Shown: positions 4,074 to 56,208, counted from the stretch's first letter. The stretch is 64,000 nt of DNA from an uncultured Opitutales bacterium (GCA_964593675.1 CAZQIE010000007.1:671-64670), one strand, 5' to 3'. Notes: generated by a model from the sequence alone, not told the origin. Numbers and translations are program-made.

Positions 4074-5304
4074 TTTTGGCTTCGGCGACGCGGGAGATGC
4101 CGATGCGCAGGGCGGCGGAACGGTGGCTGATGCGGCGCTCCGCGGCTTCCTTGAGGACCAGGTTCAGGGAGTATTCGAGGAGGCGGTAGAGACGGTCAAA
4201 GACCTCGACTTCGCTCCAGAAGAAGTTCTGGAGATCCTGCACCCACTCGAAATAGCTCACCACCACGCCCCCGGCGTTGCAGAGGATGTCGGGTATGAGG
4301 AAAACGCCGCGGCTTTCGAGAATCGCGTCGGCCTCGGGCGTCGTGGGGCCGTTGGCGCCTTCGGCAAGGACGCGGCACTTGAGGCGTGGTGCGTTTTCCT
4401 GCGTGATCACGCGTTCCAGCGCGGCGGGGATGAGGATGTCACAGTCCTGTTCCAGGAGCGCCGCGTTTGGCATCCCCTGCCCTTCCGGAAAGCCGCTCAC
4501 CGAGCCTGTGCGCCGGAGGTGCTCCTGAAGCTTTTGCAGATCCAGCCCGTTCTCATTATAAATGCCGCCGATGACGTCGGACACGCCCACGATGCGGGCG
4601 CCGTGGCGGGCAAGCCCCAGGGCGGCGTAGCTGCCGACGTTGCCGAAGCCTTGGACAATGACGCGGGAATTGGTGGGCATTTTCAGGCGGTCCATCACGC
4701 GCGAGACAAGGAACGCGACGCCGCGTCCCGTGGCCTCACGACGGCCTGCTGAGCCCCCGAGGTGCAGGGGTTTCCCGGTGACGATGCCCGGCACGCTGTA
4801 GCCGGCGTGGTTTGAGTAGGTGTCCATCATCCAGGCCATGACCTGCTCGTTTGTGCCAAGGTCCGGCGCCATGACGTCCACCTGCTGCCCGATGAACGGG
4901 ATCATCTCACTCGTGTAGCGCCGGGTAACGCCTTCGAGTTCGCGCAGGCTCAAACGGCGCGGGTCGCAGGCGACGCCGCCTTTGGCGCCGCCGTAAGGCA
5001 GGCCCACGAGGGCGCATTTCCAGCTCATCCACATCGCCAGCGCCGCGACTTCGCCAATCGCAACGTCCGGAGAATAGCGCAGGCCGCCCTTGGTGGGCCC
5101 GAGGGTAAGGTGGTGCTGTACGCGGTGGCCCGTAAACACGCGGACGGCGCCGTCGTCCATCCGCACAGGCACCGAGACGGTGATCAGCCGCTTGGGCCAC
5201 TTCACGCGCTCGCGCACCTGAGGGTCCATTCCCATCATGTCGGCAACGGCGTCAAATTGCTGGCACGCCATCCTGAACACGGGATCCGTCAGAAGGTGTT
5301 CCAT
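4051..5304 (-). CDS. gdh: NAD(P)-dependent glutamate dehydrogenase (Glu/Leu/Phe/Val dehydrogenase family)
   Basis: KGGLRY, catalytic GGAKGG, dinucleotide fold GFGNVGS, 417 aa. The 3' end overlaps the convergent hydrolase gene by 23 nt. Confidence 0.9.
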   Translation of the reverse strand: MEHLLTDPVFRMACQQFDAVADMMGMDPQVRERVKWPKRLITVSVPVRMDDGAVRVFTGHRVQHHLTLGPTKGGLRYSPDVAIGEVAALAMWMSWKCALVGLPYGGAKGGVACDPRRLSLRELEGVTRRYTSEMIPFIGQQVDVMAPDLGTNEQVMAWMMDTYSNHAGYSVPGIVTGKPLHLGGSAGRREATGRGVAFLVSRVMDRLKMPTNSRVIVQGFGNVGSYAALGLARHGARIVGVSDVIGGIYNENGLDLQKLQEHLRRTGSVSGFPEGQGMPNAALLEQDCDILIPAALERVITQENAPRLKCRVLAEGANGPTTPEADAILESRGVFLIPDILCNAGGVVVSYFEWVQDLQNFFWSEVEVFDRLYRLLEYSLNLVLKEAAERRISHRSAALRIGISRVAEAKISRGLFP

Positions 5305-5585
5305 GGGAGACCTCGGGGAAAAAGAGGGAGGAACGAAGGCGCGCCTGCCTGGGTGGAAGGGTGCGGTGAACGCGCTCAGCCAGCATGACCCGAATCTGGC
5401 GCGGGAGCAAGCCCAAGAAACCCTCCAGTACCGAAGACAAGGATAATGTGACAGCGGTTGCAGCGCCGTTGCGGTTTTTGGTGGTCTTTTTACGCAATGT
5501 CCTCACAATGAACACGGTCTGTCTGGCACCAAAAAAGACTGTACCCCCTTGAACTTGAGAACCAGCGGTCGAAAGAATCCTGTAC

Positions 5586-6440
5586 ATGCAGCTCTGGCCT
5601 GACAATACCCCTCCCCCGGTCGTCCACACCGGCCCAATGATATCCGAGAAGGAGTACGAGTTCATCCGGCAACTCGTCTACCAGCACAGCCGGATAAACC
5701 TTGGGCCGAACAAGAAAGAGTTGGTGATGGCGCGTCTTTCGAAGCGCCTGCGCGCCTGCAATCTTCCCTCGTTCAAAGCCTATTGCGACTACCTGCAGAG
5801 CCCGTCGGGCGAAGAGGAGCTGGGCAACCTGATTGACGCGATTTCCACGAACCACACGTTCTTTTTCCGCGAGAACGTGCATTTTGAGTTCCTCGTCAAC
5901 ACGGTCCTGCCCGAGCTCGCAAAGACCTCGCAGCAGTTCCGGGTCTGGAGTGCGGCGTCCTCCTCCGGCGAGGAGCCCTACTCGATCGCCATCAGCCTTG
6001 CGGAAAGCCTGGGCCTGAACAACCGGTGGCACGTTGAGTGCTCGGACATTTCGTCGAAGGTCCTTCAGAAGGCCTCGGACGGGATATTCGCGGAGGACCG
6101 GGTGTCAAAAATGCCGCAAAACCTCCTGAAAACGTATTTTCAAAAGGGGCAAGGCCGGTGGGAAGGCTACTACCGGGTGAAACCACAGCTGCGGCAGAAC
6201 CTGACTTTCCAGCTCCTGAACCTGATGGACCCATCGTTCCCGTTCCGGGAGCCGTTCCAGGTCATCTTCTGCCGGAACGTGATGATCTACTTTGACCGCC
6301 CGACCCAAGAGGATCTCGTTAACCGGTTGGCGCGGTATATCGTGCCCGGCGGGTATCTGATGATCGGGCATGCTGAAAGTTTGACGGGCATTAAGCACCC
6401 CCTCAAGATGATCAAGCCCGCCATTTACAAGAAACCCTGA
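5586..6440 (+). CDS. cheR: Chemotaxis protein methyltransferase CheR
   Basis: N-terminal helical domain EKEYEFIRQLVYQHSRINL, SAM-binding motif VWSAASSSGEEPYSIA, and IFCRNVMIYF. The start may be ATG 5637. Confidence 0.9.
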   Translation: MQLWPDNTPPPVVHTGPMISEKEYEFIRQLVYQHSRINLGPNKKELVMARLSKRLRACNLPSFKAYCDYLQSPSGEEELGNLIDAISTNHTFFFRENVHFEFLVNTVLPELAKTSQQFRVWSAASSSGEEPYSIAISLAESLGLNNRWHVECSDISSKVLQKASDGIFAEDRVSKMPQNLLKTYFQKGQGRWEGYYRVKPQLRQNLTFQLLNLMDPSFPFREPFQVIFCRNVMIYFDRPTQEDLVNRLARYIVPGGYLMIGHAESLTGIKHPLKMIKPAIYKKP

Positions 6441-6460
6441 TTCCCGCGCACCGCGCCGCA

Positions 6461-7630
6461 ATGCTGCCGGAAAAGAAGAAGACACGCGTGCTGATCGTCG
6501 ACGACTCCGCTGTCGTCCGGCAGATGGTCACCCGCATTCTCAACGACGATCCCGACCTTGAAGTGGTCGGCTCCGCGCCTGACCCGTATTTTGCCCGGGA
6601 CAAGATCCTGGAACTCAAGCCGGACGTCCTGACGCTGGACATTGAAATGCCGCGCATGGACGGGCTGACGTTCCTGAAGATCCTGATGGAGCACCACCCG
6701 ATCCCGGTGGTGGTAATGAGTTCTCTTTCGCAGGCGGGGTCCGAAGTGGCGATGGAGGCCCTGGGGCTCGGCGCGGTCGACGTGCTGGGCAAGCCGGACG
6801 GCTCGTTCTCGGTTGGCGACCTTGGTCCCCAGCTCGTGCAGAAAGTGAAGGCGGCGGCGCTTTCCAGGAGGCTTCCGCGGAAACCGGCGAGCACGCCTGC
6901 GGCGCCGAACAAAAAGGGCGCGACGCCGACGGGCAAAGTCACCCCGGTGCCCACACGCCCTGGAACCTCGATCGTCTCCCCGTTGAGACCTGCGGCGCCC
7001 GTGACCCACGACGACGAACCTCCCCACAAGTACCACCCGCGTCAGATCGTGCTGCTTGGCGCGAGCACGGGCGGGACGGAGGCGTTGAAGGACGTCTTGA
7101 CGGCGCTGCCCGCGGATATGCCGGGCATTTGCGTCGTCCAGCACATCCCCGCGTATTTTTCGGGCGCCTTCGCACGCCGGCTTGATTCCCTTTGCGCGCT
7201 GCGCGTGAAAGAGGCCGTGGACGGGGACAAGGTGGAGCCGGGGCTTGTGCTCGTTGCGCCGGGCAACTTTCACATGGTGCTTTCGTGGACGGGTGGAGCG
7301 TACCGGGTCTCGCTCAAGCAGGGGCCTATGGTGTGGCACCAGCGTCCCGCGGTGGACGTGCTGTTCAAGTCGGCGGCGGATCTGGCAAAAGGCTTCGCCG
7401 TCGGCGCGGTGATGACAGGGATGGGCAAGGATGGCGCGGAAGGGCTCCTGATGCTTAAGCAGCGCGGCGCGCGGACTTTTGCGCAGTCTGAAGAAACGTG
7501 CGTGGTTTACGGCATGCCCAAAGCGTGCTTTGAACTGGGCGCAGCGGAACGGATGGTCCCCCTTCCGCGGATGGCTGACGCCGTCCTGCAGGCCGTCCGG
7601 CAAATCGAGACGTCCCCCCCCGCCCCATGA
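6461..7630 (+). CDS. cheB: Chemotaxis response regulator protein-glutamate methylesterase CheB
   Basis: REC domain (VLIVDDS ... LTLDIEMPRMDG), a Pro/Ala-rich linker, and the esterase triad context GASTGG / VQHIP / MTGMGKDGA. Confidence 0.9.
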   Translation: MLPEKKKTRVLIVDDSAVVRQMVTRILNDDPDLEVVGSAPDPYFARDKILELKPDVLTLDIEMPRMDGLTFLKILMEHHPIPVVVMSSLSQAGSEVAMEALGLGAVDVLGKPDGSFSVGDLGPQLVQKVKAAALSRRLPRKPASTPAAPNKKGATPTGKVTPVPTRPGTSIVSPLRPAAPVTHDDEPPHKYHPRQIVLLGASTGGTEALKDVLTALPADMPGICVVQHIPAYFSGAFARRLDSLCALRVKEAVDGDKVEPGLVLVAPGNFHMVLSWTGGAYRVSLKQGPMVWHQRPAVDVLFKSAADLAKGFAVGAVMTGMGKDGAEGLLMLKQRGARTFAQSEETCVVYGMPKACFELGAAERMVPLPRMADAVLQAVRQIETSPPAP

Positions 7631-9570
7631 AACCGGAAGTCTCGTTGATCCCCCAGTTCAAGACCTGCCAGTTCGTGCTCGACGCGGCAGGGCTGATCCT
7701 ACAGGCGGACCCGGATGCGGCGGACCGCATCGGCTACCCACACCGGGACATCTGCGGGCGCGCGTTCCGGGACGTGCTCGTGGGCATCAACGCAGGCTGG
7801 GCCGACCTTGTTCCGGCGGACTGGGCAAACAGCCCGGAACCGACCTTCCTGCCGTGGATCGAGGGCGACAAGGCGGCTCCGACGGGCCTGTGCCTCCACC
7901 ACATGACGCGTGGGGAGCTCGTGTATGCGACGCTTACGCCCTCGCTGGCTCCCTTCCGCGAGCTGCAAAAGTCGTCGCTGATGGACTTTCCGGCGCACCC
8001 GGAAGGGATGGCGCAGATGGCGCTCCGGCTAATTACGGCGGAAAGCCGGCTTGAGAACTACATGCACCACTTCCCGGGCGTGTTTTTCGGCCAGCGTCCG
8101 GACCTTTCCTTCTCCTTCATTGGTCCCGGTTTTCAGGAAAAATTTGGCCAGCCCTCGCAGAGCCTGCTGCGCAGCGGAGCGGCGTTCCTTGGCCTGCTTT
8201 TCGACAAGGACTGCGATTTCTTCCTGCAGGAACTGGAGAAGAATTCGAAAGAGAAGAAGACCTTCAACCTGACCTACCGCGTCAAGCACCCCATTGACGG
8301 CACGTTCGTGTACCTGCTCGACGTGCGCACGCCCCTCTTCAGCCCGACGGGCCTGCTGCTCGGCTACGAAGGCGTGTGGCTGGACATCACGCGCCAGTCC
8401 ATCGCCGAGGCCCGCCTCACCTCCTCCGCGTGGAAGGAGAGCCTCGCGACGATTACCTCGGGGCTGGTTCACGACTTTTCGAACATCATGGCGGGCATCT
8501 ACTCGTTGTCGGAACTGTATTACGACACGATGGACCCGAACAACTCCATGTATGCGGGCATGGGGCAGATCAAAAAGAGCTCCATGCAGGCGCAGAAGCT
8601 CGTGCGCCGCATCATAGACCTGAACCGCGACCTCGCCGGCCAGCGCAATTACCACAACATCGAGACGCTGATCAAAGACCAGATGGACCTGGTGCGGATC
8701 GTGTTCCCCAAGAGCACGAAGATCGAAACCACGTTCACGGAAGAGGACCTGCCCGTGTACCTCGACGACGTGGCGTTCCGCCAGATGTTGCTGAACCTGT
8801 GCATCAACTCGCGCGACGCCATGAACAAGACGGGCGAAATCTCCATCAGCGTCCGCCATGTGCGGCCCGGGGACGTCGTGCTGGAGAAGGCGCATGTGGG
8901 GACGCTGTGCGTGGAGCGCGAAGGCGTGGAGATCCATTTCAGCGACACGGGCTCCGGTATTGACGAGAAACACCTGACGAAGATTTTCGACCCGTTCTTC
9001 ACGACCAAGGAGGCCACCAAAGGCTCCGGGTTTGGCCTGTACAACGCCCGCCTGTTTGTTGAGAACAACAAGGGCCGCATCGGTGTGCATTCCGTGAAAG
9101 GCCAAGGCACCACGTTCTTCATCTACCTGCCCCTGGCCGATTTCACCGAAATGGCGGAAGCGGAGGAGCCGCAGACCCCCGCAAAAACGTCCGATCACCG
9201 GCGCCCGTCATTCCTGGTCTATGCGGCGCAGGACCCCGAGAATTTCGACCTCGTGCAACAGCTCCGGGAGCAGGAGTGGGAGGTTATCACGTTCGACCAG
9301 CTCACCCACGTGAAGAAGTACCTGCAAACGGCCGAAATGCTCCCACACATCGTGTTGGCGCTCGACGTTGGTCAGGATGCCTCGGTGGAGCCGCTGCTCG
9401 ACCACATTCACCGGGATTACTCGGGCATGAAAATCGTGCTGCGCGAGCTTTCCCGCCCCCTGGATCAGTTGCCTTCCCTAACCCGGAATAAGGTTGATCT
9501 TCTGCTCGACGAGAGCACGATGGACAGGGAGGTCGTAAAACAACTTGGGCAGTTGATTTCCAAGCTCTAA
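7627..9570 (+). CDS. Cytoplasmic PAS-containing sensor histidine kinase with C-terminal receiver-like domain
   Basis: The start ATG overlaps the cheB stop (ATGA at 7627-7630). H-box GLVHDFSNIMAGI, HATPase motifs DTGSGID and GSGFGLY. No obvious TM segment. The C-terminal 140 aa are REC-like (HIVLALDVG). Confidence 0.85.
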   Translation: MKPEVSLIPQFKTCQFVLDAAGLILQADPDAADRIGYPHRDICGRAFRDVLVGINAGWADLVPADWANSPEPTFLPWIEGDKAAPTGLCLHHMTRGELVYATLTPSLAPFRELQKSSLMDFPAHPEGMAQMALRLITAESRLENYMHHFPGVFFGQRPDLSFSFIGPGFQEKFGQPSQSLLRSGAAFLGLLFDKDCDFFLQELEKNSKEKKTFNLTYRVKHPIDGTFVYLLDVRTPLFSPTGLLLGYEGVWLDITRQSIAEARLTSSAWKESLATITSGLVHDFSNIMAGIYSLSELYYDTMDPNNSMYAGMGQIKKSSMQAQKLVRRIIDLNRDLAGQRNYHNIETLIKDQMDLVRIVFPKSTKIETTFTEEDLPVYLDDVAFRQMLLNLCINSRDAMNKTGEISISVRHVRPGDVVLEKAHVGTLCVEREGVEIHFSDTGSGIDEKHLTKIFDPFFTTKEATKGSGFGLYNARLFVENNKGRIGVHSVKGQGTTFFIYLPLADFTEMAEAEEPQTPAKTSDHRRPSFLVYAAQDPENFDLVQQLREQEWEVITFDQLTHVKKYLQTAEMLPHIVLALDVGQDASVEPLLDHIHRDYSGMKIVLRELSRPLDQLPSLTRNKVDLLLDESTMDREVVKQLGQLISKL

Positions 9571-9704
9571 GCGCGAGTCCTAACGAACCCGTTTTCCGAA
9601 AATAAAAGCCGGTCCAGACACGTTCTGATTCCCCTACCCTTCACCCCCACCGATTCAGGAATCCCAGCCCCGCCCGCCCGGCGCCGGGCTGTGCCCCCCA
9701 GGCA

Positions 9705-10970
9705 ATGAGCGAGAATCCCCCGAACCTTCCCGTGCTGGTCGTGGATGACGAGGAAATCATCCTCCTCGCGCTCCGCGAGACGCTTGCGCAGGAAGGCTAC
9801 CAGGTGGTCACGGTGAACAGCCCGGTGGAGGGGTTGGAAAAACTGAAGGAACAACCCTTTGCCGTCATCTTGTCAGACCAGCGTATGGCAGAGATGACGG
9901 GTCTCGAATTCCTCGCGGAGGCGAAGAAGCTCCAGCCGAGCGCAAGCCGCATCCTGATTACAGGTGTCCTCACGCTCAAGACGGTGATTGATGCCGTCAA
10001 CAAGGGCGAAATCTTCCGTTTCCTGGCGAAGCCGTGGATCCGGGAGGAACTCGTGGCGACGCTCCGGAACGCGTATCAGCGGTACGTGCTGATGGAGGCC
10101 AATGAGCGCCTTCAGGCCGACACGCTGAAGCTCAACACGCAGCTTCAAGCCGCGAACGAGGAACTGCGCCGCCGCATCCAGGAAATCTCGCAGCAGAAAA
10201 CCGAGTCGGAAGTGGCGCAGGAAGCGCTGAGACGCAATTTCGACCACTCGATCGAGCTTTGTTACCGCCTCATTTCGACGTTCTACCCGATCCTCGGTGC
10301 CCAGACGAAGGCGATCGTTGATATCTGCCAGTTGATCTGCGACAGCGGGCACCTTGATGAAACGGAGCAGCGCGTCCTGAAAGTCGCGGCTTGGCTGCAA
10401 AATATCGGGCTTATCGGCATTTCCCGTGAAGTGCTGTCGCGCTATTTCAAGAGCCCCGAGACGCTCACGGAGCGGGAGGAAGCGCTCATACAGCACCACC
10501 CGGTTTACGGGCAGACGCTCGCCGGGTTTGTGGACAACCTCCAGGAGGTCGGAGCGACCATCCGGGCGCACCACGAGCGTTGGGACGGCCAAGGCTTTCC
10601 CGACGGGCTTGCCGCGGAAATGATTCCCCGGCCGGCGCGCTTCCTTGCCGTAGCGGTTTACTACGTTGAGTCGGGTCTCGACCGCGACCCCGCCCTGGAG
10701 GCGATTGTGGAGCAGTCGGGCAAAGCCTTTGACCCGGAAGCCGTGCGCCTCTTCCTGAAGGTCACACGGCTGGCGGCCCTGCCCAAGGCGGTGCGGGAAG
10801 TCCTTTTCTCGGAACTGCGTCCGGGCATGGTGCTGGCGCGGGGGATTTACAGCCCCGGCGGCCTGTTACTTATTCCAGAAGGTGCCTTGCTCACGGAGCA
10901 GACGTTATACAAAATCAGGGAACACAATCAAGTGGACCCGCTCGATCAACGCCTTATGGTGTTTGCCTAA
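9705..10970 (+). CDS. Response regulator with degenerate HD-GYP domain
   Basis: REC domain: VLVVDDEE, ILSDQRMAEMTG, FLAKPW. HD-GYP-like domain: HHERWDGQGFPDGL, but the HD dyad region reads AAWLQNIGLIGI and GYP reads GFP. Confidence 0.85.
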   Translation: MSENPPNLPVLVVDDEEIILLALRETLAQEGYQVVTVNSPVEGLEKLKEQPFAVILSDQRMAEMTGLEFLAEAKKLQPSASRILITGVLTLKTVIDAVNKGEIFRFLAKPWIREELVATLRNAYQRYVLMEANERLQADTLKLNTQLQAANEELRRRIQEISQQKTESEVAQEALRRNFDHSIELCYRLISTFYPILGAQTKAIVDICQLICDSGHLDETEQRVLKVAAWLQNIGLIGISREVLSRYFKSPETLTEREEALIQHHPVYGQTLAGFVDNLQEVGATIRAHHERWDGQGFPDGLAAEMIPRPARFLAVAVYYVESGLDRDPALEAIVEQSGKAFDPEAVRLFLKVTRLAALPKAVREVLFSELRPGMVLARGIYSPGGLLLIPEGALLTEQTLYKIREHNQVDPLDQRLMVFA

Positions 10971-10988
10971 CCCCGCGCAACCGCCGCG

Positions 10989-13307
10989 ATGAAAAACATC
11001 AAAGCCCTCATCGTAGAGGACGACCTGAACTCCGCCTACATCCTGAAGAAGATTCTTCTGACGGCGGGGCACGAGGTCGTTGCTGTCGCTGAGACAGGCG
11101 AGGACGCTTTGAACCGGGCGCGGGAACTGAAGCCGGACATCGTGCTGATGGACATCAACATCAAGGGCACCATGGACGGCGTGGAGGCGGCGGACGTGAT
11201 CGCGCGGGAGCAGGATCTTCCGATAATCTACCTGACGGGTTATTCGGACGATTACACGATTGAGCGCGCCAAGCGCACGGCCCCGTTCGCGTACATCCTC
11301 AAGCCGCTGCGCGAAAAGGAAGTCCTGATCACCATCCAGATGGCCATCTACAAGGCCCAGATGGACAGGAAACTCAAGGAAAGCGAGCACCGGCTTGCCG
11401 TCACGCTGGGAAGCCTGCATGACGCGGTCGTGGCCACGACGAACCAGGGCCTCATCACTTACCTGAACCCTCAAGCCGAGCGCCTGTTGAGCCTCGAACG
11501 GAAGCTTGCGGAGGGCAAAGCGCTGTCACAGGTCGTCCACATCTCCTACCGGGACACGAACGAGAAGATCCCGGACATCTACAGTTTCCTGTTCCGTGAA
11601 TCCTTTGAAAAGGCGAGGTCCCGCCCGCTCCAGCTCAACCAGCCGGGCCAACCTGCCCGCATCCTGAGCCTCAAGAGCACACCGCTCCGCGATCCGGAAG
11701 GACAGAACACGGGCTACGTGGTTGTGTTCAACGAGATCACGGACCACTACGAGGCTGAGGAAAACAACCGCATCCTCGCCACGGCGCTCGCGTCGCTGGA
11801 AGACGCCGTCATCATCACGGACGCCGACCTTTCCGAAGGCAACCCACGCATCATTTACGCCAACGCCGCGTTTGAAAAGATCACCGGCTACCCGCAGGTT
11901 GAAGCGGTAGGCCGGACGCTGGACCTGATCAGCGGGCCACGCACGGACAACGCGTTCCGGGGCCTGCTCAAGCACTCGATTGGCGCCGGGGTGCCGTTCG
12001 AAAACGAGACGTGCAATTACCGGAAGGACAAGCAGGAGTTCACCGCGCAGTGGACGGTCTCCCCGGTACATGCGGAAGACGGCCAGCTGCGCCGGCTGGT
12101 CTTCGTGCTGCGCGATATCACGCGCCTGCGCAACCTTGAGGACAACATCCGGCAAAGCCAGAAGATCGAGGCCGTGGGGCGCCTGGCAGGCGGTATCGCG
12201 CACGACTTCAACAATCTGCTGTCGGTCATCAACTCGTATTCGGACCTGCTGTCGCTGAAGCTCGATCCGGACTCGCCCTTCAACAAGTACGTCAAGAACA
12301 TCCGCACCGCCGGTCAGCGCGGAGCGGACCTGGTTTCCCAGTTGATGACGTTCAGCCGCCGGGAGTCCCACAGCCCCACGGTTGTGGACCTGGGCGAGAC
12401 GATTCAGGAGACGCAGAAACTGCTGCACCCGCTGATCCGCGAAAACATCGAGCTGGAAATCCGGATCGAAGAGAACCTGAAGCCCGTAAAGGTCGATCCC
12501 GGCCAGATCGAACAGGTACTCGTGAACCTTTGCGTCAACGCGCGCGACGCCATGTCGGGCAGCGGCCACATTACGATCGAGGTGCGGAACGTCACGCACC
12601 GGCTCGAAGCGGGCGTCACGCCCCCGCCGAACCCGCGCGCCCCGGGCGAATATGTGACGATCAGCGTCACGGACTCGGGCCACGGCATCGACGAGAAGGT
12701 GCTGCCGCACATCTTCGAGCCCTTCTTCACGACCAAGGCCGCGGGCAAGGGCACGGGCCTCGGGCTCGCCGTCGTGTATGGCATCGTCAAGCAGAGCGGT
12801 GGCTATCTGGACGTGCAGAGCAAAGTGGGCGAAGGCACGACGTTCCGCGTCTACCTGCCCGCCTACCATGCGCCGGATAACAAGCCGGTGAAAGCCGAGT
12901 CGGCCACCCCCGCCCTACCGACTCCAGAGCCCCATGGGGACGAGACGGTCCTCATTGTCGAGGACGATGAAACCTTCGCCGACTGCATTTCCGGCCTGCT
13001 AAGCCTGCACGGCTATCAGGTGCTCGTCTCCGGCGAAGGCCAGGACGCCCTTGACCGGTTTGGCGGCAAAGCGGACGAGATCAAGCTCCTGATCACCGAC
13101 ATTGTCCTGCCGAAAATTTCGGGCCGCGAAGTCGCCAGCAAGTTCCTCGAGAAGAACCCGAAGATGAAGATCCTCTTCATGTCCGGGTACGACGACGAGC
13201 TGGATTCTTTCTACTCGTTCCCGAGCGACAGCGTGCTCCTGCAGAAACCTTTCTCCCTAAACACTATTTTGGGCAAAGTACGCGAACTCCTCGACCACCC
13301 CGCCTGA
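10989..13307 (+). CDS. Hybrid sensor kinase: REC-PAS-PAS-HisKA-HATPase-REC
   Basis: N-terminal REC (ALIVEDD, VLMDINIKGTMDG), H-box GIAHDFNNLLSVI, HATPase (DSGHGID, GTGLGLA), C-terminal REC (VLIVEDDE, LLITDIVLPKISG). Confidence 0.9.
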   Translation: MKNIKALIVEDDLNSAYILKKILLTAGHEVVAVAETGEDALNRARELKPDIVLMDINIKGTMDGVEAADVIAREQDLPIIYLTGYSDDYTIERAKRTAPFAYILKPLREKEVLITIQMAIYKAQMDRKLKESEHRLAVTLGSLHDAVVATTNQGLITYLNPQAERLLSLERKLAEGKALSQVVHISYRDTNEKIPDIYSFLFRESFEKARSRPLQLNQPGQPARILSLKSTPLRDPEGQNTGYVVVFNEITDHYEAEENNRILATALASLEDAVIITDADLSEGNPRIIYANAAFEKITGYPQVEAVGRTLDLISGPRTDNAFRGLLKHSIGAGVPFENETCNYRKDKQEFTAQWTVSPVHAEDGQLRRLVFVLRDITRLRNLEDNIRQSQKIEAVGRLAGGIAHDFNNLLSVINSYSDLLSLKLDPDSPFNKYVKNIRTAGQRGADLVSQLMTFSRRESHSPTVVDLGETIQETQKLLHPLIRENIELEIRIEENLKPVKVDPGQIEQVLVNLCVNARDAMSGSGHITIEVRNVTHRLEAGVTPPPNPRAPGEYVTISVTDSGHGIDEKVLPHIFEPFFTTKAAGKGTGLGLAVVYGIVKQSGGYLDVQSKVGEGTTFRVYLPAYHAPDNKPVKAESATPALPTPEPHGDETVLIVEDDETFADCISGLLSLHGYQVLVSGEGQDALDRFGGKADEIKLLITDIVLPKISGREVASKFLEKNPKMKILFMSGYDDELDSFYSFPSDSVLLQKPFSLNTILGKVRELLDHPA

Positions 13308-13350
13308 GCTCCGTGCGCCGCCCTCCATCGCAGCCACCTCCTTCCCTACC

Positions 13351-15912
13351 ATGCCCCTCAGCGAAAAACTGCTCACCGACCTTGAGTCCACGCTCAACAA
13401 GATCGCCACGGAGATGGTTCTGGCGCAGCCGGGAAAGGACGACGGCATGGTCCCGGTGTACGCGCTGTTGCGCGAGATCGAACCGATCGGCGTGGATGAC
13501 GCCATTGTGGGCGAATCCGTCAGCAACGTGCAGCAGGCGATGGATGCGCTGATGGACGCAGGCCAGCCTTTCGACCAGGCCACCCTGGATTACGTCACCC
13601 AGTTTGTTTCGTGGGCGGAGGCTGCAATCCGGGCCTACCGGCAAGGGCAGGAGGATGAGATCGGGCCGTTCCCGCCCATGCACGCGGGGCCGATAGCCGT
13701 GGCTTCCCACGGCGCGACGTCGGACAACGCCGTCGAAGACGCCGCAAGCCGCATCGCCACCGAGATTTCACTCGCCCAGGCGGGAACGGATCAGGGCCTC
13801 ATCCCCACTTACTCGCTCGCGGGTGACCTCGCCGACACCAGCGCCGGCAACCCTTCGCTCGCGCAGTCTGCGCAGAACCTGCGCGCGGCCCTGGGCGCGC
13901 TGCTTGATCAGGGCAAGCCCTGGGACCAGCCAACACTGGACTACGCCACCGCCTTCTCCGCCTGGGCCGAGAAGCACATGGCGAACCTGAAGGCCGGCAA
14001 GGAAGTCCCGGCATTTGCGCCAATGCCCGGCCTGGAAACAGCCCCGGCCGCGCCTGCAGCCCCGGAAGCCGCGCCCCTCGCGGCGGCAACGGACGCCGTT
14101 GAACAGGGATGCGCCCTCGACGGTGAGGTCGACGTCCTGCTGGACCTGAACCTTGGCGCCGATACCGAACTGCTTTCCGAGTTCCACTCCGAGGCGCTCG
14201 ACCACCTGGAGCAGATTGAGGCCGCCTTGCTCGTCCTCGAAAATTCCCCGCGCGACAAGGAAAGCCTCAATTCCATTTTCCGTTCGTTCCACACCATCAA
14301 AGGTGTGTCGGGGTTCCTCCACCTCGTGCCGATCCAGGCGTTGTCCCACGAAGTCGAGTCCCTCCTCGACCACGCGCGCAACGCGAAGCTGGTGCTGAAT
14401 TCGGCGATGATCACGGCCATTCTGCAAAGCCGCGACGCGATCCAGGCACTCGTACACCAGATTACCGATGCGCTTGAGAAGGGCGCGGTGCCCGACAAGA
14501 TTGTCCCCGTCTCGCACCTGATAAAGAAGGTGAAGCAGGCTGCCGCGGAAGGGCTTCAGCGCGGAGTAACGGCGGCAACCGAGACGGCGTCTGCCGCCCC
14601 GTCTGCCGCGGCCGCTGCAAAGGAAACCGCCCAGGAAGCCGCATTCTTTGGAGATTCCCGCGCAAATGGCGCCGCCGTGGAGGTCGCAGACGAACCTGCT
14701 GCCGCCGCGGAAGCCCCCGCTGCGGAGGGCGAACCGTCCGCCAAGGCCACCGGCGAGCGCTCCACCATCCGCGTCAACACGCTGAAGCTCGACAACCTCA
14801 TGGACACGGTGGGCGAGCTCGTGATCGTGCAAAGCCAGCTTGAGGAAAGCGCGCGGGAAGTGGCGACGGAGAACTCGAACCTGCAGCGCAACCTGGCCCA
14901 GCTTTCGCGCATCACCAAAGAGCTGCAGCACACCTCGATGGCCCTCCGCATGGTGCCCATCAAGCCGACCTTCCAGAAGACCAGCCGCATCGTGCGCGAC
15001 CTCGCGCGCCAGATGAAAAAGAAGGTCAACTACCACGTGGAAGGTGAGGACACCGAACTCGACCGCAACGTGGTGGAGCAGATTGGAGACCCGCTCGTTC
15101 ACATGGTGCGCAACGCCATTGACCACGGCATCGAGGACCCCACGGACCGCGTGGCCAGCGGCAAGGAGGAGACGGGGAACTTCTATCTGAAGGCCTACCA
15201 CATGGGCAGCAACATCGTGATCGAGGTCGGCGACGACGGCCGCGGCATCGACACGACCAAGGTGCTTGCCAAGGCGCGGAACAAGGGCCTTGTGCCCGAG
15301 AACCAGCAGTTCTCCCGCGAGGAGATTTACCAGTTCCTGTTCCTGCCGGGTTTCTCGACCGCGGAGAAGATCACGGAAGTTTCGGGCCGGGGCGTGGGCA
15401 TGGACGTCGTGAAGCGCAACATCGAGAAGCTGCGTGGCACGATCGAGATCGAATCGGAACTCGGCAAGGGCTCCGTATTCAAGATCAAGCTGCCGCTCAC
15501 CATGGCCATCATTGACGGCCTCGTGGTGCGCGTGGGCGCGGACAAGTTCATCCTCCCGACGACCTCGGTGAGCCTGGCGCTGCGTTGCACAAAGGAGCAG
15601 ATCACGAAGATCCAGGGGCGTGCGGAGGTGCTCGACCTGCGCGGCAAGACCGTCCCGATCATCCGCCTGCATCAGCGCTTCAACATCCCGACCGAGATCA
15701 CGAGCGTCACTGACGGCATCGTGGTGATTATCGAGAGTTTCGGGAAACTCTACGGCCTGCTCGTGGACGACATGGTCAGCAAGCAGGAAGTCGTCATCAA
15801 GTCCCTGGGGAACCTGTTCCACCAGCTCCCGGGTGTGGCGGGTGGCGCCATCCTGGGCGACGGCACGATCGCGCTGATCCTCGACCCGTCCTCGCTCGTC
15901 GCCGCACGGTAA
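13351..15912 (+). CDS. cheA: Chemotaxis histidine kinase CheA with extended duplicated N-terminus
   Basis: Hpt FRSFHTIKGVSGF, kinase core HMVRNAIDHGIE / GDDGRGID / GRGVGMDVV, C-terminal CheW-like domain IIDGLVVRVG...GDGTIALILD. Confidence 0.9.
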   Translation: MPLSEKLLTDLESTLNKIATEMVLAQPGKDDGMVPVYALLREIEPIGVDDAIVGESVSNVQQAMDALMDAGQPFDQATLDYVTQFVSWAEAAIRAYRQGQEDEIGPFPPMHAGPIAVASHGATSDNAVEDAASRIATEISLAQAGTDQGLIPTYSLAGDLADTSAGNPSLAQSAQNLRAALGALLDQGKPWDQPTLDYATAFSAWAEKHMANLKAGKEVPAFAPMPGLETAPAAPAAPEAAPLAAATDAVEQGCALDGEVDVLLDLNLGADTELLSEFHSEALDHLEQIEAALLVLENSPRDKESLNSIFRSFHTIKGVSGFLHLVPIQALSHEVESLLDHARNAKLVLNSAMITAILQSRDAIQALVHQITDALEKGAVPDKIVPVSHLIKKVKQAAAEGLQRGVTAATETASAAPSAAAAAKETAQEAAFFGDSRANGAAVEVADEPAAAAEAPAAEGEPSAKATGERSTIRVNTLKLDNLMDTVGELVIVQSQLEESAREVATENSNLQRNLAQLSRITKELQHTSMALRMVPIKPTFQKTSRIVRDLARQMKKKVNYHVEGEDTELDRNVVEQIGDPLVHMVRNAIDHGIEDPTDRVASGKEETGNFYLKAYHMGSNIVIEVGDDGRGIDTTKVLAKARNKGLVPENQQFSREEIYQFLFLPGFSTAEKITEVSGRGVGMDVVKRNIEKLRGTIEIESELGKGSVFKIKLPLTMAIIDGLVVRVGADKFILPTTSVSLALRCTKEQITKIQGRAEVLDLRGKTVPIIRLHQRFNIPTEITSVTDGIVVIIESFGKLYGLLVDDMVSKQEVVIKSLGNLFHQLPGVAGGAILGDGTIALILDPSSLVAAR
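13360..13680 (+). repeat. CheA N-terminal repeat 1 (aa 4-110)
   Basis: KIATEMVLAQPGKDDGMVPVYAL...GQPFDQATLDYVTQFVSWAE aligns by eye with repeat 2. Confidence 0.75.
13720..14025 (+). repeat. CheA N-terminal repeat 2 (aa 124-225)
   Basis: RIATEISLAQAGTDQGLIPTYSL...GKPWDQPTLDYATAFSAWAE. There is no His at an Hpt-like position. Confidence 0.75.
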
Positions 15913-16111
15913 CGGGTCGAGGCGCCCACTCAGTCCCCCACCCCGGGTGCCCGGCGACGGGAGCTGCGCTGGGGCGTCGCAGAAAGGCGGCGTGGCGGAA
16001 GCATGCCAGAGCGCCCTGCGATTCCCGTGGTGGAAGCCCAAAGGCGGAGCTTGGAATGCGGGGAAAAACCTGCCATATTCCGCCGCCAATCAAACCTTTC
16101 CGGACATTGTT

Positions 16112-16813
16112 ATGAAGCGCCTGCTGTACGTCGCCTTGGCCCTCGCTGCCTGTGCCCTCCCCTCCGCCGCGCAAGTGGTGGCGCCCACTCCGGCCACGCC
16201 GGATGTGAAAAAGCCCGCCACCCCTGCGGAACAGCCCGTCACCACGCCGGCGCCCACCCAGATTTTCCAGTATAAGAACGGCACCCGTTCCAAGGGCATC
16301 CTCGCCCGCACGAACTGGACCTACGATGCCGCGACGGACTCTTTCATCCAGCGCGGAACCAGCATGGTCTTTCCGGGCCGTATCGGCGAGTTCGTACGTG
16401 TCCGCGTCACCTACTTCGACGACGACGGCAACAACACCAGTTTCTCTTACGTTCACCCGCAGAGCCGCGCCCTCGTCACGCTTCACACCTACCAGGCCAA
16501 GGGCGGGACGAGTCTGGAGGACAATGTTGAGGTCCACTTCAAGGACCACCAGAAGGACGTAGGCGACCGACACGACGGCAAGTTTGTCGCCACCGGCGAG
16601 GCCACCCTCGTCCGCGAAGGCACGACGTATCCGGGCAAGGCCGGCCATTACGAGACCAGCGTGGCCCGCCAGAAGGCTGAAGGTGACCTGTTCATCTTCA
16701 AGATGAAGGACCGCTACCTGAAGGTCCGCGCCGTCCACCCGGCGTCGGATGCCAACGCGAAACAGCAAGTGCAGGATTTCCTCGCCAAGTGGGGCATCCA
16801 GCGCGCGAGCTAG
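16112..16813 (+). CDS. Secreted hypothetical protein
   Basis: The internal ATG at 16112 of ORF 15947..16813 gives the signal peptide MKRLLYVALALAACALPSAAQ, followed by a Pro/Thr-rich linker. I recognise no family. Confidence 0.55.
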   Translation: MKRLLYVALALAACALPSAAQVVAPTPATPDVKKPATPAEQPVTTPAPTQIFQYKNGTRSKGILARTNWTYDAATDSFIQRGTSMVFPGRIGEFVRVRVTYFDDDGNNTSFSYVHPQSRALVTLHTYQAKGGTSLEDNVEVHFKDHQKDVGDRHDGKFVATGEATLVREGTTYPGKAGHYETSVARQKAEGDLFIFKMKDRYLKVRAVHPASDANAKQQVQDFLAKWGIQRAS

Positions 16814-16893
16814 GCCGCCCGTTCTCCATCCCCGCCCGCTTTAGCAGCCCCCGGGTCGCCCGGAGGCACAACCTTCCGATTTCTCCCCCTGCC

Positions 16894-18315
16894 ATGGACC
16901 AGATTCCCAACGTACTCGCCAGCCGCTATGCCTCCCGTGACATGCAGGCCATTTGGAGCGCCCGCGGCCGCATCGTCCTCGAACGCGAATTCTGGATCGC
17001 CATCCTCAAGGCCCAGCGCGACCTCGGCCTGAACATTCCGGCTGAAGCCATCACCGCCTACGAGCGGGCCAAGGACAACGTCGATCTGTCCTCCATCCGC
17101 AACCGCGAACAGGTGACGCGGCACGATGTGAAGGCACGCATCGAGGAGTTCTGCGATCTGGCGGGGCACGAGCACATACACAAGGGCCTGACGAGCCGGG
17201 ACCTGACCGAGAGCGTGGAACAGCTCCAGGTATACCACGCGCTTGAGTTCACCCGCAAAAAGGCGGTGGCCGCCGCAAACGCGCTCGCCCGCCGCGCCGA
17301 CGAGACCCGCGCCATCGTCCTTACCGCGCGCACGCACAACGTCGCCGCGCAACCCACCACTTTCGGCAAGCGTCTGGCGATGTTCGGGGAAGACCTGCTT
17401 CGCGGCATCGACCGCGTGGACCAGAGCTTCAACACCTACGCCGTCCGCGGGCTCAAAGGCGCCGTCGGCACGCAGCTCGACCAGCTTACGCTTTTCGCTG
17501 GCGACGCCGCGAAGGTGGCCGCCCTCGAGCAGCGCGTGCTCGCGCACCTCGGCATTCCCCGCGTGTTTGAGAACGTGGGCCAGGTGTACCCGCGGAGCCT
17601 CGACTTTGAAATCGTCAGCGCGCTGTACCAACTCGGCAGCGGCCCGTCGTGCTTCGCGAAGACGCTGCGCCTGATGGCCGGCCACGAGCTTGCCAGCGAA
17701 GGCTTCGCGCCCGGCCAGGTCGGGTCCTCCGCGATGCCGCACAAGATGAACAGCCGCAGCTGCGAGCGCCTGAATGGCCTCCACGTGATCCTGCGCGGTT
17801 ACATGGAAATGGCAGCGGGCCTAGCGGGCGACCAGTGGAACGAGGGCGACGTGTCCTGCTCTGTCGTCCGGCGCGTGATGCTGCCCGACAGTTTCTTTGC
17901 CATCGATGGGCTTTTTGAAACCTTCCTCGTCATCCTCGCGCAGATGGAGGTGAACCCGGCCGTCGTAGACCGCGAGCTTCGCCATTACCTGCCGTTCCTC
18001 GCCACAACGACCGTGCTCATGGAAGCCGTCAAGGCGGGCGTCGGCCGTGAAACCGCGCACGAGGCAATCAAGGAACACGCGGTGGCGGCCTCGAGAGCCC
18101 TGCGCTCCGGTGCGCCTGAGAACGACCTTGTTGACCGACTCGCCGCGGACGCGCGCCTGAACCTGTCGAAGGCGCGACTCGGTGCGATCATGGAGGAGGC
18201 GCGCCGCGCGACCGGTGCGGCCTCGGCCCAGGTGGACGCCTATGTGCGCCAGGCGGCATCGTGGATGGACCGCGTGCCCGGCGCACGGGACATCAAGGCC
18301 GGCCGCATCCTGTAA
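16894..18315 (+). CDS. purB: Adenylosuccinate lyase
   Basis: ATG at 16894 (MDQIPNVLASRYAS). Fumarate-lyase signature SSAMPHKMNSRSCE. About 473 aa. Confidence 0.9.
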   Translation: MDQIPNVLASRYASRDMQAIWSARGRIVLEREFWIAILKAQRDLGLNIPAEAITAYERAKDNVDLSSIRNREQVTRHDVKARIEEFCDLAGHEHIHKGLTSRDLTESVEQLQVYHALEFTRKKAVAAANALARRADETRAIVLTARTHNVAAQPTTFGKRLAMFGEDLLRGIDRVDQSFNTYAVRGLKGAVGTQLDQLTLFAGDAAKVAALEQRVLAHLGIPRVFENVGQVYPRSLDFEIVSALYQLGSGPSCFAKTLRLMAGHELASEGFAPGQVGSSAMPHKMNSRSCERLNGLHVILRGYMEMAAGLAGDQWNEGDVSCSVVRRVMLPDSFFAIDGLFETFLVILAQMEVNPAVVDRELRHYLPFLATTTVLMEAVKAGVGRETAHEAIKEHAVAASRALRSGAPENDLVDRLAADARLNLSKARLGAIMEEARRATGAASAQVDAYVRQAASWMDRVPGARDIKAGRIL

Positions 18316-19165: not shown

Positions 19166-21091
19166 TCACACCGGCAGGTCCGGAACCTCGGGTTCTCCGG
19201 CAAGCGGCCGGCTCAGGTCGAGCGTGACCCGCACGGTCCGCTCGTCATCGTCGCGATCGAGCTTTGCCCCGAATTTATGGAAGACATGGAGCATCGGCTG
19301 GTTGTCCTGACCGCAAAGAGCCCAGAGGCTTTTGAGCCCACGTTTCCGCGCCACTTCCACCATATGTCTCAGTAGCAGGCTGCACATGCCGTGGCGCTGC
19401 TTCGACTCTCGCACGACAAAGGCCATTTCCCCGGACGTCTCGTTGGCGTCGAGGAAGTACCGGCCCACCGCGTGGATGACCTGCCGCGGCCCTTGCACCT
19501 CAAACACCGCCAGCGCGAGATCCTTGGACTGGTCCACACTGACGAGATGGTAGGCGCGCTCGCGGGTCATGCGGCTCACCGGGTGGCCGTAACGCCGCAG
19601 GATGGTTTCTGGCGAATGGGAATAAAAGAATTCCTGCAGTCGGCGCTCGTCCGACGGGTGCAAGGGGCGAAGCTGGCAGGTCTCGCCTTTAAGCGTCACC
19701 CATTGGCTTTCAACGTCCCCAATCTCCGTAACTGGAATGGGAGAGACAGCCTGATAGGCTGGCACGAGCCGGCGGCGCCGCGCTTCCTCAAGCAGGCTGT
19801 CGCGGAATTTTGGATGGGCTACCTGTATGAGCTCCAGCACGCGCTCGCGGACGCTGCGGCCCCGGAGCGTGGCTACGCCGTATTCCGTGACGACAAAATG
19901 GACGTCCGTGCGGGTCGCAGACACCGACACCCCTTCGGCGAGAGCCGGCACGATGGTCGAGACTTCGCCGCGGCATGCCGTGGAGCGCAGGCAGACAATG
20001 GCGCGCCCGCCGGGAGCCAGGGAGGCGCCCCGGAGAAAATCGGGGTGGCCGCCAATCCCGCTGTGCAAGCGCGTGCCGATGGTGTCGGCCACGGCTTGCC
20101 CGGTAAGGTCGACCTGAAGGGCGCCGTTTATTGCGACCATCTTGTGTTGGCTCGCGATCGTGAAGGGCGCGTTAACGTACTCCGTCGGGTGAAAAGCAAT
20201 GTGCGGGTTATTGTTAACGTGGGCGTAGAGCCGGCGCGTGCCCAGGCACATCGCGGCAACGGTTTGGCCTGTATGGGATGTCTTGCAACTGTTGTCTACG
20301 GAGCCGCAGAGGATGAGGTCCAGCAGGTCTTCCGTGAGCAACTCGGTATGGACGCCGAGCCGCCGGTGGCCCGCAAGGGCCGCGCAAACTGCGGCCGCCA
20401 CCTTGCCCATCCCAAGCTGGAGCGTGCTGCCGTCCTCGATAAGCTGCGCGACGTAAGCCCCGATGCGTGCCGTCACGGAGTCCCGAGGCGTAGCGGGAAC
20501 CTCGGGAGGCGCCTCGGAGTGCTCCATGATGCGCGATATGCGGGACTGGTGGATGAAGCTGTCCCCCAGCGTGCGGGGCAGCAGGGGATTGACTTGCGCG
20601 ATCACGGTGCGGGCGACTCGGGCCGCCGCGGAAACGACGTCCACGCTCGGCCCAAGCGAGCAGTAGCCGGAGGCATCCGGCGGCGTAACCGCGATCAGCG
20701 CGACATCGACAGGCACCATGCCCTGCGCAAACAGCCCAGGGATTTCCGACAAGGGCATGGGGGTGTAATCCGCGCCCGCGTGATTTACGCTGTCGCGCAG
20801 ACCGGGCCCGACAAAATACGTGTTCACCCGGAAGCTCGCGCGGAAGCGGGCGTCCGCCCACGGTGCTGGCCCGAGTGTGAGGCCGTGGAAAAGCTCAACG
20901 TCCTTCAGCGCGTCCGCGTGTGAGAGAAGGGAGCCCATCAAGCCGCCGGGAAACGCCGCTCCGGACCCGATGAACACGCGGCTTCCGGGTCGAATCAGGT
21001 GGGGCCATTCCTTGGGATCAAGGGGCTTCATTTTCAGGTGCGAACGGGCGCGCCCGAGCATCGGGGGGACGCCGTCCGCAGGCGGTTTCAC
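19166..21091 (-). CDS. Acetyl-CoA hydrolase/transferase family protein fused to a C-terminal GNAT acetyltransferase domain
   Basis: The N-terminal ~430 aa carry SGIGGHPDFLRGA, typical of the acetyl-CoA hydrolase/CoA-transferase family. The C-terminal ~170 aa are GNAT-like (LRPLHPSDERRLQEFF...QRHGMCSLLLRHMVEVARKRGL). The start may be ATG 21031. Confidence 0.75.
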   Translation of the reverse strand: MKPPADGVPPMLGRARSHLKMKPLDPKEWPHLIRPGSRVFIGSGAAFPGGLMGSLLSHADALKDVELFHGLTLGPAPWADARFRASFRVNTYFVGPGLRDSVNHAGADYTPMPLSEIPGLFAQGMVPVDVALIAVTPPDASGYCSLGPSVDVVSAAARVARTVIAQVNPLLPRTLGDSFIHQSRISRIMEHSEAPPEVPATPRDSVTARIGAYVAQLIEDGSTLQLGMGKVAAAVCAALAGHRRLGVHTELLTEDLLDLILCGSVDNSCKTSHTGQTVAAMCLGTRRLYAHVNNNPHIAFHPTEYVNAPFTIASQHKMVAINGALQVDLTGQAVADTIGTRLHSGIGGHPDFLRGASLAPGGRAIVCLRSTACRGEVSTIVPALAEGVSVSATRTDVHFVVTEYGVATLRGRSVRERVLELIQVAHPKFRDSLLEEARRRRLVPAYQAVSPIPVTEIGDVESQWVTLKGETCQLRPLHPSDERRLQEFFYSHSPETILRRYGHPVSRMTRERAYHLVSVDQSKDLALAVFEVQGPRQVIHAVGRYFLDANETSGEMAFVVRESKQRHGMCSLLLRHMVEVARKRGLKSLWALCGQDNQPMLHVFHKFGAKLDRDDDERTVRVTLDLSRPLAGEPEVPDLPV

Positions 21092-36765: not shown

Positions 36766-36891
36766 GGGTAGACGGGGTTGCTCGCGATTGCGGACAAAAC
36801 CGGGCTTGCGGGGTGGGCCGGTTGTCCAGCGCGGGACTATCTCCGCTTCTGATCTTATATTCTTAGGGACAAACGGGAACGTTCGCCACGT

Positions 36892-36904
36892 TGAAACCGT
36901 TGAC
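36892..36904 (-). promoter_or_regulatory. Glycan-locus box GTCAACGGTTTCA
   Basis: 136 nt upstream of the start at 36765. Two more AACG copies follow at 9-nt spacing, and CGTTCC lies 17 nt after AAC. Confidence 0.5.
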
Positions 36905-37055
36905 CCTGGCTGAACCCTACGCACGGTCAAAAAGAAGAGAGCACATTCCGGTGGTCGCCCTCCCCACTTTTGTTTGCTGCCCTGCTCCACGATTTCAGCT
37001 ACAGCCCGGTTGTGGCAGCCAGTGCCCTTTTGAGAAATTACCCACGCGCGCGGAC

Positions 37056-56159: not shown

Positions 56160-56208
56160 GACGCCAAGCCTAAGGCTGGGCCAGCGTCCCGCACAAAGCC
56201 TTGAGCAT

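Follow-up and report, generated by a model that had tools for sequence, protein, structure and literature searches.

How might a chemotaxis-like signalling operon operate when it encodes CheR, CheB and the kinase CheA, but sits in a stretch of DNA with no methyl-accepting chemotaxis protein (MCP), no separate CheW and no single-domain CheY? This question is raised by six genes at positions 5586–15912 of a 64,000-nucleotide (nt) sequence from an uncultured Opitutales bacterium (GCA_964593675.1 CAZQIE010000007.1:671-64670), referred to here at its full length as the window. An earlier note, made from the sequence alone, had likened the operon to alternative-function pathways such as Wsp or Chp, by implication wired without MCP or CheW, with an HD-GYP-type output and with the substrate of CheR and CheB left unnamed. 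The six open reading frames (ORFs) are tightly spaced on the plus strand:

5586–6440, plus strand: cheR, MCP methyltransferase of 284 amino acids (aa), with Pfam CheR_N and CheR S-adenosylmethionine (SAM)-binding domains (6.8e-57 and 1.5e-17)
6461–7630, plus strand: cheB, 389 aa, with Pfam REC (receiver) and CheB_methylest domains
7627–9570, plus strand: HK3, a soluble kinase of 647 aa (Pfam, NCBIfam), the start of which overlaps the cheB stop (ATGA)
9705–10970, plus strand: the response regulator (RR), 421 aa, with Pfam REC (D58) and HD_5 (185–345) domains and a C-terminal extension of about 70 aa
10989–13307, plus strand: HK5, a hybrid kinase of 772 aa, in Pfam terms REC(D55)-PAS-PAS-HisKA(H405)-HATPase-REC(D704)
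13351–15912, plus strand: cheA, 853 aa, with Pfam Hpt, H-kinase_dim, HATPase_c and CheW domains

The layout with its intergenic gaps of 20, −4, 134, 18 and 43 nt stands as the note had described it, as do the domain calls, including the CheW-like P5 domain of CheA (Pfam, NCBIfam), and the lack of a transmembrane segment in all six products, where the highest 19-residue Kyte-Doolittle mean (1.61) falls within a conserved strand of CheA P5. Base composition is even along the whole operon, and the catalytic or phospho-acceptor residues are intact in CheR, CheB, CheA, HK3, HK5 and the receiver of the RR. Comparison with related loci leads us to propose that the operon is probably a relocated and fused part of a dispersed, flagellum-linked chemotaxis system that is typical of the Opitutales (Verrucomicrobiota).

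Scanning species-representative genomes with a CheA alignment yielded 80 Opitutales loci, which were taken with 10-kb flanks and mapped by tblastn using each window domain as well as reference Che and flagellar proteins. The loci show two arrangements, and these match two clades in a neighbour-joining tree of the CheA core. Type I comprises 65 loci, where CheA carries one N-terminal repeat and an hdod gene lies directly downstream of cheA in 60. Within 10 kb in these loci there is a separate cheW in 54, usually divergent and upstream, cheD in 35, a convergent cheR-cheB-(hk3)-rr operon in 30, flgB in 29 and an MCP gene in 20. In 29 type I loci, and likewise in loci L088 and L089, cheR diverges from flgB-flgC-fliE-fliF. 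Type II comprises 14 loci, including Pelagicoccus and DG1235, with a CheA that usually bears two N-terminal repeats; both the window and locus L069 fall inside this clade, and a PAS hybrid kinase gene of the HK5 family is located immediately 5' of cheA in every one of the 14.

Two modules can be recognized in these relatives. The first is cheR-cheB-(hk3)-rr, usually followed by cheW, cheD or hdod and usually divergent from flgB-flgC-fliE-fliF, whereas in the second cheA is paired either with cheW, hdod and MCP genes or with hk5. Because relatives carry both modules separately, we interpret the window operon as the cheR-cheB-hk3-rr module fused to the hk5-cheA module. In L085, gene calls place HDOD, PAS-HK-REC, MCP, HK-REC, cheW (minus strand), cheA and hdod genes on one side and cheR-cheB-hk3-rr-cheD, divergent from flgB-flgC-fliE-fliF, on the opposite strand. 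In L069 (Opitutia bacterium UBA3534) the two modules are joined as in the window: the six-gene order is identical, the proteins are 45–59% identical, the gaps are 14, 11, 17, 7 and 24 nt and the flanks hold unrelated housekeeping genes, despite a guanine-plus-cytosine (GC) content of 45% as against 63% in the window. The closest relatives, L089 and L090, were found by a search with the RR and come from two independent samples (68% identity for the RR, 56% for HK5 and 45% for HK3). Here fliI-fliH-fliG-fliF-fliE-flgC-flgB diverges from cheR-cheB-hk3-rr-hk5, five of the six genes in order, followed by a gene for an MCP with a dCache_1 domain. Similarly, in L088 the fliI...flgB genes diverge from cheR-cheB-hk3-rr-cheW-x-cheD-hdod. 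In the type II genome DG1235, a cheR-hk-rr-cheW-cheD-hdod-x-REC231-REC122-PAS/SpoIIE cluster, in which REC122 is a CheY-like receiver of 122 aa, is situated approximately 38 kb from hk5-cheA.

From these gene orders, we take the cheW, cheD, hdod, CheY-like and MCP genes of the relatives to be conserved members of the same system, adjoining the flagellar basal-body operon. Since the modules lie beside flagellar and MCP genes in L089 and other relatives, and the operon of L069 is identical, the window operon most likely belongs to a flagellum-linked chemotaxis system that depends on MCPs and has its other genes elsewhere in the genome. The Wsp/Chp-like wiring proposed in the note is therefore not borne out. 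The note had also stated that dedicated MCP and CheW genes elsewhere would speak for an ordinary motility system; such genes are indeed present in relatives, and DG1235 comes close to this condition, with cheW-cheD-hdod about 38 kb from a cheA of the same type, although this concerns the relatives and not the source genome itself. The composition of the system is not fixed within the family, as judged from Nibricoccus aquaticus (L001; CP023344.1, 2429330-2451507, a complete genome), where HDOD, PAS-HK-REC, HK-REC, cheW, cheA and hdod genes lie together and no cheR, cheB, rr or flagellar gene is found within 10 kb. We found no paper describing the Opitutales arrangement in the literature searched.

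CheR contains both the SAM motif WSAASSSGEEPYS and the FCRNVMIYF motif. CheB scores 411 bits against its NCBIfam subfamily, where the cutoff is 293, and has the phospho-acceptor D60 and the catalytic residues S202, H228 and D299. We considered whether HK3 or HK5, rather than MCPs, could be the substrate of CheR and CheB, but judge this unlikely because the L089 operon includes the dCache MCP with a conserved QAASLEETSASMEE stretch. We take this stretch to be typical of an MCP methylation region.

The CheA protein departs from the familiar domain plan at its N-terminus, where two repeats precede P1:

13351–13650, plus strand: repeat 1 (aa 1–100), a His-less P1-like four-helix bundle (AlphaFold2, Foldseek)
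13708–13995, plus strand: repeat 2 (aa 120–215), a His-less four-helix bundle, the copy common to one-repeat CheAs
14167–14448, plus strand: P1 (Pfam Hpt 273–366), with the phospho-accepting H314 at 14290–14292
14761–15903, plus strand: P3 (471–531), P4 (580–717) and the CheW-like P5 (723–851), from Pfam

H314 and the N, G1, F and G2 boxes are invariant in the CheA alignment (A1), in which P5 is also nearly invariant between types I and II, including CheAs adjoining cheW or MCP genes. P2 is absent, an Ala/Pro-rich linker following P1 instead, and Pfam detects no C-terminal REC. Neither repeat is matched by Pfam or has a conserved His. In the AlphaFold2 prediction each folds with confidence into a four-helix bundle (pLDDT of about 90), with the helices of repeat 1 spanning residues 5–24, 33–47, 51–69 and 76–97. 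The best single-domain Foldseek matches of the repeats are the CheA P1 structures 1i5n, 3kyi and 8c5v, with a TM score of about 0.65 and a root-mean-square deviation of about 2.1 Å; the E-value is weak (0.3) and designed bundles score alike. The repeat family is rare and always N-terminal, with 158 clusters among 1.84 billion representatives. His-less Hpt-like domains are also present in Rhodobacter sphaeroides CheA3 and Pseudomonas aeruginosa ChpA, where their roles are not known (PMC10782961). All homologs of the window CheA belong to the Opitutales/Opitutaceae, with identities reaching at most 57–60%, and include Nibricoccus aquaticus, Pelagicoccus and DG1235.

The RR has clear fold homology to HD-GYP domains (Pfam HD_5, 4e-26; 4mcw, 3.4e-14). 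Upon alignment with the solved HD-GYP enzymes PmGH (4mcw), V-cGAP3 (5z7c) and PA4781 (4r8z), the HDIGK motif reads QNIGL, such that Q232 and N233 replace the His-Asp pair and Leu replaces Lys, and the metal site further lacks its first His and last Asp. At the HHExxDGxGYP motif the RR has kept HHERWDGQGFP, where the Tyr to Phe exchange is shared with PA4781 and most orthologs have GYP. Loss of the His is common to all 34 RR orthologs extracted from the loci, which read CD, SD, QD or QN at this position, again with Lys replaced by Leu and the last Asp gone, whereas the receiver residues (DD, D, T/A and K) are conserved across the same 34. With the His-Asp pair replaced and further metal ligands lost, the RR cannot be an ordinary phosphodiesterase for cyclic di-GMP (c-di-GMP), to judge from these residues. 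The HD-GYP-type output of the earlier note therefore survives only in part: a receiver with a c-di-GMP-type domain does accompany cheR-cheB (in 30 of 65 type I loci as well as L069, L087, L088 and L089), but the domain is catalytically degenerate. Against the NCBIfam NosR family (NF053512) the RR aligns over its full length with 350 bits, under the cutoff of 400. This family was founded on a degenerate HD-GYP receiver whose presumed targets are other c-di-GMP enzymes (PMC12570481), and the same source describes NosR and HnoD as degenerate HD-GYP receivers that function without hydrolysis.

HK3 comprises an N-terminal domain (residues 1 to approximately 150), a PAS domain (164–254), a dimerization and histidine phosphotransfer (DHp) domain with H282, a catalytic and ATP-binding (CA) domain (380–504) and a C-terminal domain (approximately 520–647). 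Pfam recognizes a single weak PAS_3 match and the HATPase_c kinase domain and leaves the N-terminal domain without assignment. Of the note's two soluble multi-PAS kinases, both are indeed soluble and HK5 has its two PAS domains, but HK3 is not clearly multi-PAS. Alignment indicates that HK3 orthologs have in common the N-terminal domain (except in L069), the PAS domain, the DHp signature AGIYSLSELY, an intact ATP-binding domain and a receiver-like C-terminal region of about 125 aa. This last region (9172–9567 in the window) has a receiver-like alpha/beta pattern undetected by Pfam, and its Asp position is D, Y, K or R among orthologs, so it appears to be a pseudo-receiver. The H-box His (8470–8472 in the window) is kept in the window, L069, L088, L089 and DG1235, whereas the five type I genomes that carry hk3 (L008/L085, L006, L073, L074 and L077) have N, Q or D there and retain the N, G1 and G2 boxes for ATP binding. 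The His-less type I orthologs are thus apparently pseudokinases embedded within the cheR-cheB operon. In the HK5 orthologs located 5' of type II cheA genes, the H-box and the C-terminal REC are conserved throughout.

On this basis we propose a wiring in which transmembrane MCPs and CheW, encoded elsewhere, would control CheA through P5. CheA would autophosphorylate at H314 and pass the phosphate to D60 of CheB for adaptation, with CheR acting on the MCPs, and would also phosphorylate the RR receiver at D58. Indeed, because the RR accompanies cheR-cheB with or without hk3, and also with a His-less hk3, CheA is left as its sole conserved candidate for a phosphate donor. The two soluble PAS kinases may bring cytoplasmic signals into the shared phospho-network, HK3 by acting on the RR as a kinase or a phosphatase. 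HK5 could be a target of CheA by way of its N-terminal REC, in the manner of Rhodospirillum centenum CheA3, which phosphorylates REC1 of the REC-REC-PAS kinase CheS3 (PMC3868531), or it could be a phosphate donor, with its C-terminal REC feeding the P1 domain of CheA, which would then serve as Hpt. For a precedent in which a Che pathway and a kinase share an output, Che3 and the CrdS kinase together control CrdA in Myxococcus xanthus (PMC3147164). Rather than hydrolysing c-di-GMP, the phosphorylated RR might bind a nucleotide, a c-di-GMP enzyme or a motor or HDOD partner, like HnoD and NosR.

Several observations weigh against placing the operon in an MCP-dependent flagellar system. Pfam scans of the 38 ORFs spanning the 64-kb window, together with tblastn using E. 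coli Tsr, CheW and CheY and Opitutales CheW, CheD, HDOD, CheY, MCP, FlgB and FliG, revealed no MCP, separate CheW, CheD, HDOD or flagellar gene, nor a single-domain CheY or receiver, and the gene upstream of the operon encodes glutamate dehydrogenase (gdh), so that the operon does not adjoin flagellar genes here. None of the 14 type II loci has a cheW or MCP gene within 10 kb of cheA, and for this clade the linkage to flagella and receptors depends on DG1235, L088 and L089. The N-terminal REC of HK5 is confined to an ortholog subgroup that includes the window and is absent or degenerate in several others; phosphotransfer from CheA to the HK5 REC can therefore be no general rule. Finally, all phosphotransfer steps of the wiring are predictions from sequence.

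Other readings were also weighed. One is that the operon belongs to an alternative-cellular-function (ACF), Wsp-like pathway, where MCP/CheW arrays elsewhere drive CheA and the REC-HD-GYP protein gives a c-di-GMP-related output such as biofilm formation or surface behaviour, not flagellar taxis. A receiver with a c-di-GMP-type domain as the constant partner of cheR-cheB, a window devoid of single-domain CheY, the cheW-cheA-hdod set of N. aquaticus with no cheR, cheB or flagellar gene nearby, and a P2-less CheA with extra Hpt-like domains, an architecture reported mostly for ACF and type IV pilus (Tfp) classes (PMC10782961), would all fit such a pathway. However, cheR diverges from flgB-flgC-fliE-fliF in the 29 type I loci and L088/L089, the DG1235 operon includes cheD and the 122-aa CheY-like REC, and the RR itself cannot alter c-di-GMP levels because its HD-GYP domain is catalytically degenerate, which together make this reading unlikely. 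We consider it highly improbable that the operon is instead a receptor-independent phosphorelay, with no MCP or CheW in the genome, phosphate passing from the C-terminal REC of HK5 to CheA P1 and on to the RR and CheB, and CheR and CheB modifying a non-MCP substrate or surviving as relics. Although 64 kb without MCP or CheW, 14 type II cheA loci out of 14 with a hybrid kinase directly 5' and neither partner within 10 kb, and a conserved HK5 REC that requires an Hpt, of which CheA P1 is the only one nearby, are what this relay would predict, it is at odds with the near-invariance of P5 relative to CheAs adjoining cheW or MCP genes, with the full retention of catalytic residues in CheR and CheB, with the cheW, cheD and hdod genes in the rr operon of the type II genome DG1235, and with the dCache MCP gene directly after hk5 in L089.

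The note had itself allowed that the PAS kinases might be unrelated insertions, and one could further imagine that kinases and RR are chance two-component neighbours of the che genes or that the locus is an assembly chimera, given that the window derives from a draft contig of 65,875 bp and that the 134-nt gap before the RR gene could house an internal promoter. This is extremely improbable. L069, at its much lower GC content, repeats the order with gaps of only 7–24 nt, L089 and L090 preserve five of the six genes in order, and the base composition is uniform along the operon; the synteny with L069 and L089/L090 leaves practically no room for a chance neighbourhood or a faulty assembly. The kinases are rather integral to the arrangement, HK3 lying between cheB and rr in at least 11 loci, with overlapping stop and start codons in the window, L089 and L085, and HK5 following rr in the window, L069 and L089.

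The preferred reading thus remains that of a dispersed, flagellum-linked system. Where a Che cluster seems to lack receptors within 64 kb, as here, gene dispersal is a better explanation than a new kind of pathway, which calls for caution in such scans. What is distinctive is the dead HD-GYP receiver, the HK3 kinase or pseudokinase and the His-less P1-like bundles in a P2-less CheA, all conserved across the order, and the pairing of HK5 with CheA. The comparison thereby outlines an order-wide chemotaxis variant in an abundant but little-studied phylum, in which cheR-cheB is permanently tied to a receiver with a dead HD-GYP domain, often along with a PAS kinase (a pseudokinase in some lineages), HDOD is a conserved partner, and CheA carries His-less P1-like domains and is joined by a hybrid kinase. 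It is possible, albeit doubtful, that Opitutales flagellar chemotaxis goes further and uses components absent from every model system, namely an RR/HDOD output and CheA P1 as the Hpt of HK5. If so, the phosphorylated REC-degenerate-HD-GYP protein, with HDOD, would be the pathway output or a c-di-GMP sensor coupling taxis to the motor or to c-di-GMP enzymes, CheA P1, next to His-less P1-like bundles used for docking, would also act as Hpt for HK5, and cytoplasmic signals of redox or energy state would reach the chemotaxis phosphorelay while bypassing receptors, in the extreme form within a source genome without any MCPs. Were the cross-talk real, the Opitutales would offer a natural system in which to study how a flagellar chemotaxis phosphorelay takes in classical two-component kinases and modules of the c-di-GMP type.

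Upstream of the operon lies the presumed promoter region:

5305–5585, plus strand: 281 nt 5' of cheR, in which no promoter was found

A sigma-70 scan of 4900–17000 returned no promoter-like site, and checks of 5305–5585 for sigma-28 and sigma-54 patterns gave nothing convincing. Terminator-like sites in 4900–17000 were fewer than expected from shuffled sequence, with none in the intergenic gaps, which leaves that scan uninformative. Boxes of the form GCCGATAA, GCCGATAT or TCGATAA, resembling a sigma-28 -10 element, occur 5' of cheR in L088 (5398–6072), L085 (19737–19973) and L089 (5246–5845), at the point where cheR diverges from flgB; positions 5305–5585 of the window have no clear equivalent. 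Downstream of cheA, a 288-aa ORF (15947–16813, plus strand) occupies the position of the HDOD gene in type I relatives. Its probable true start is at 16112, followed by the signal-peptide-like sequence MKRLLYVALALAACALPSAAQ, and its 3' end overlaps the start of an adenylosuccinate-lyase ORF. We rejected it as a seventh operon gene, given its signal-peptide-like internal start, the lack of any Pfam match and the absence of homologs from all related loci.

The remainder of the window is a polysaccharide-degradation neighbourhood, with carbohydrate-degradation genes dense at 22382–43620 and 53964–58228. These encode a DUF5703/GH95-like protein, a GH2-like protein (1222 aa), a GH42 beta-galactosidase, a GH13 alpha-amylase, a heparinase II/III, a trehalase and a GH95 protein, accompanied by an SSF-like transporter, a LacI regulator and two PEP-CTERM proteins (39051–39884 and 56239–57063). 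A giant protein of 2778 aa (43658–51994, minus strand) with at least six FN3 repeats and PA14, CBM96, purple-acid-phosphatase-N-like and right-handed beta-helix domains is probably secreted or surface-bound and polysaccharide-active. Inside the glycoside-hydrolase cluster there is also an ORF of 1047 aa (33961–37104, minus strand; GC at third codon positions, GC3, high at 0.75) with no Pfam match at E ≤ 1e-3. Two genes of the uroporphyrinogen decarboxylase (URO-D-like) family (58285–59424 and 61360–62385, both minus strand) enclose a plus-strand ORF of 553 aa (59470–61131) with low GC3 and no Pfam match, which may be spurious. A protein of 641 aa (19166–21091, minus strand) fuses an acetyl-CoA hydrolase/transferase to a C-terminal GNAT acetyltransferase domain. 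No Rfam family or tRNA was found in the window, and the window proteins were singletons in a cluster look-up.

The operon can be set beside several known systems. With canonical flagellar chemotaxis (MCP-CheW-CheA-CheY with CheR, CheB and CheD, as in E. coli and B. subtilis) it shares the P1, P3, P4 and P5 domains of CheA and a CheR and CheB with intact catalytic residues, and its modules are found in relatives together with cheW, cheD and MCP genes and the flgB-fliF operon. It differs in that the window operon has no MCP, CheW or CheY, two PAS kinases and a REC-degenerate-HD-GYP protein are embedded within it, HDOD is a conserved partner in relatives, and CheA lacks P2 and bears one or two His-less P1-like bundles. 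The Wsp system of Pseudomonas, of the ACF class, in which WspE phosphorylates the REC-GGDEF protein WspR, likewise encodes CheR and CheB homologs together with a fusion of a receiver to a c-di-GMP-type domain. However, the Wsp operon includes an MCP and two CheW, WspE is a CheA-REC hybrid and WspR an active cyclase, whereas the window RR is a dead HD-GYP protein at a locus that is flagellum-linked in relatives. Since it encodes neither MCP nor CheW and has neither a CheA-REC hybrid nor an active c-di-GMP enzyme, the window operon is not of the Wsp type.

The RR itself resembles NosR of Burkholderia pseudomallei (PMC12570481) and HnoD of Shewanella in combining an intact receiver with an HD-GYP domain that has lost metal ligands and in its presumed action by binding. 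Unlike NosR, it scores under the family cutoff, no NosP/H-NOX sensor gene accompanies it (Pfam found no FIST/NosP domain among the window ORFs), and its partners are cheR, cheB, HK3, HK5 and cheA. The motif pattern is also distinct, QN...GFP or CD...GYP in the window protein and its orthologs compared with HG...GTP in NosR and HnoD.

For CheA, R. sphaeroides CheA3 and P. aeruginosa ChpA (PMC10782961) likewise have His-less four-helix P1-like bundles in P2-less proteins. In contrast to these, the window bundles lie N-terminal to a functional P1, number one or two per CheA when relatives are included and are missed by Pfam Hpt, in a CheA without a C-terminal receiver. The R. centenum Che3 cluster (PMC3868531), which governs cyst formation, shares with the window a second soluble REC-PAS histidine kinase adjoining CheA, although CheS3 belongs to the HWE kinases and lacks a C-terminal REC, whereas HK5 is a HisKA kinase with one, CheA3 is a CheA-REC hybrid, and the cluster has an MCP, two CheW and CheY3. 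The Che3 and CrdS/CrdA system of M. xanthus (PMC3147164) has a membrane-bound kinase, gives its output through a transcription factor of the NtrC type and encodes MCPs and CheW in the cluster; what it has in common with the Opitutales operon is the lack of CheY and, under the proposed wiring, the convergence of CheA and a separate classical kinase on a single output regulator.

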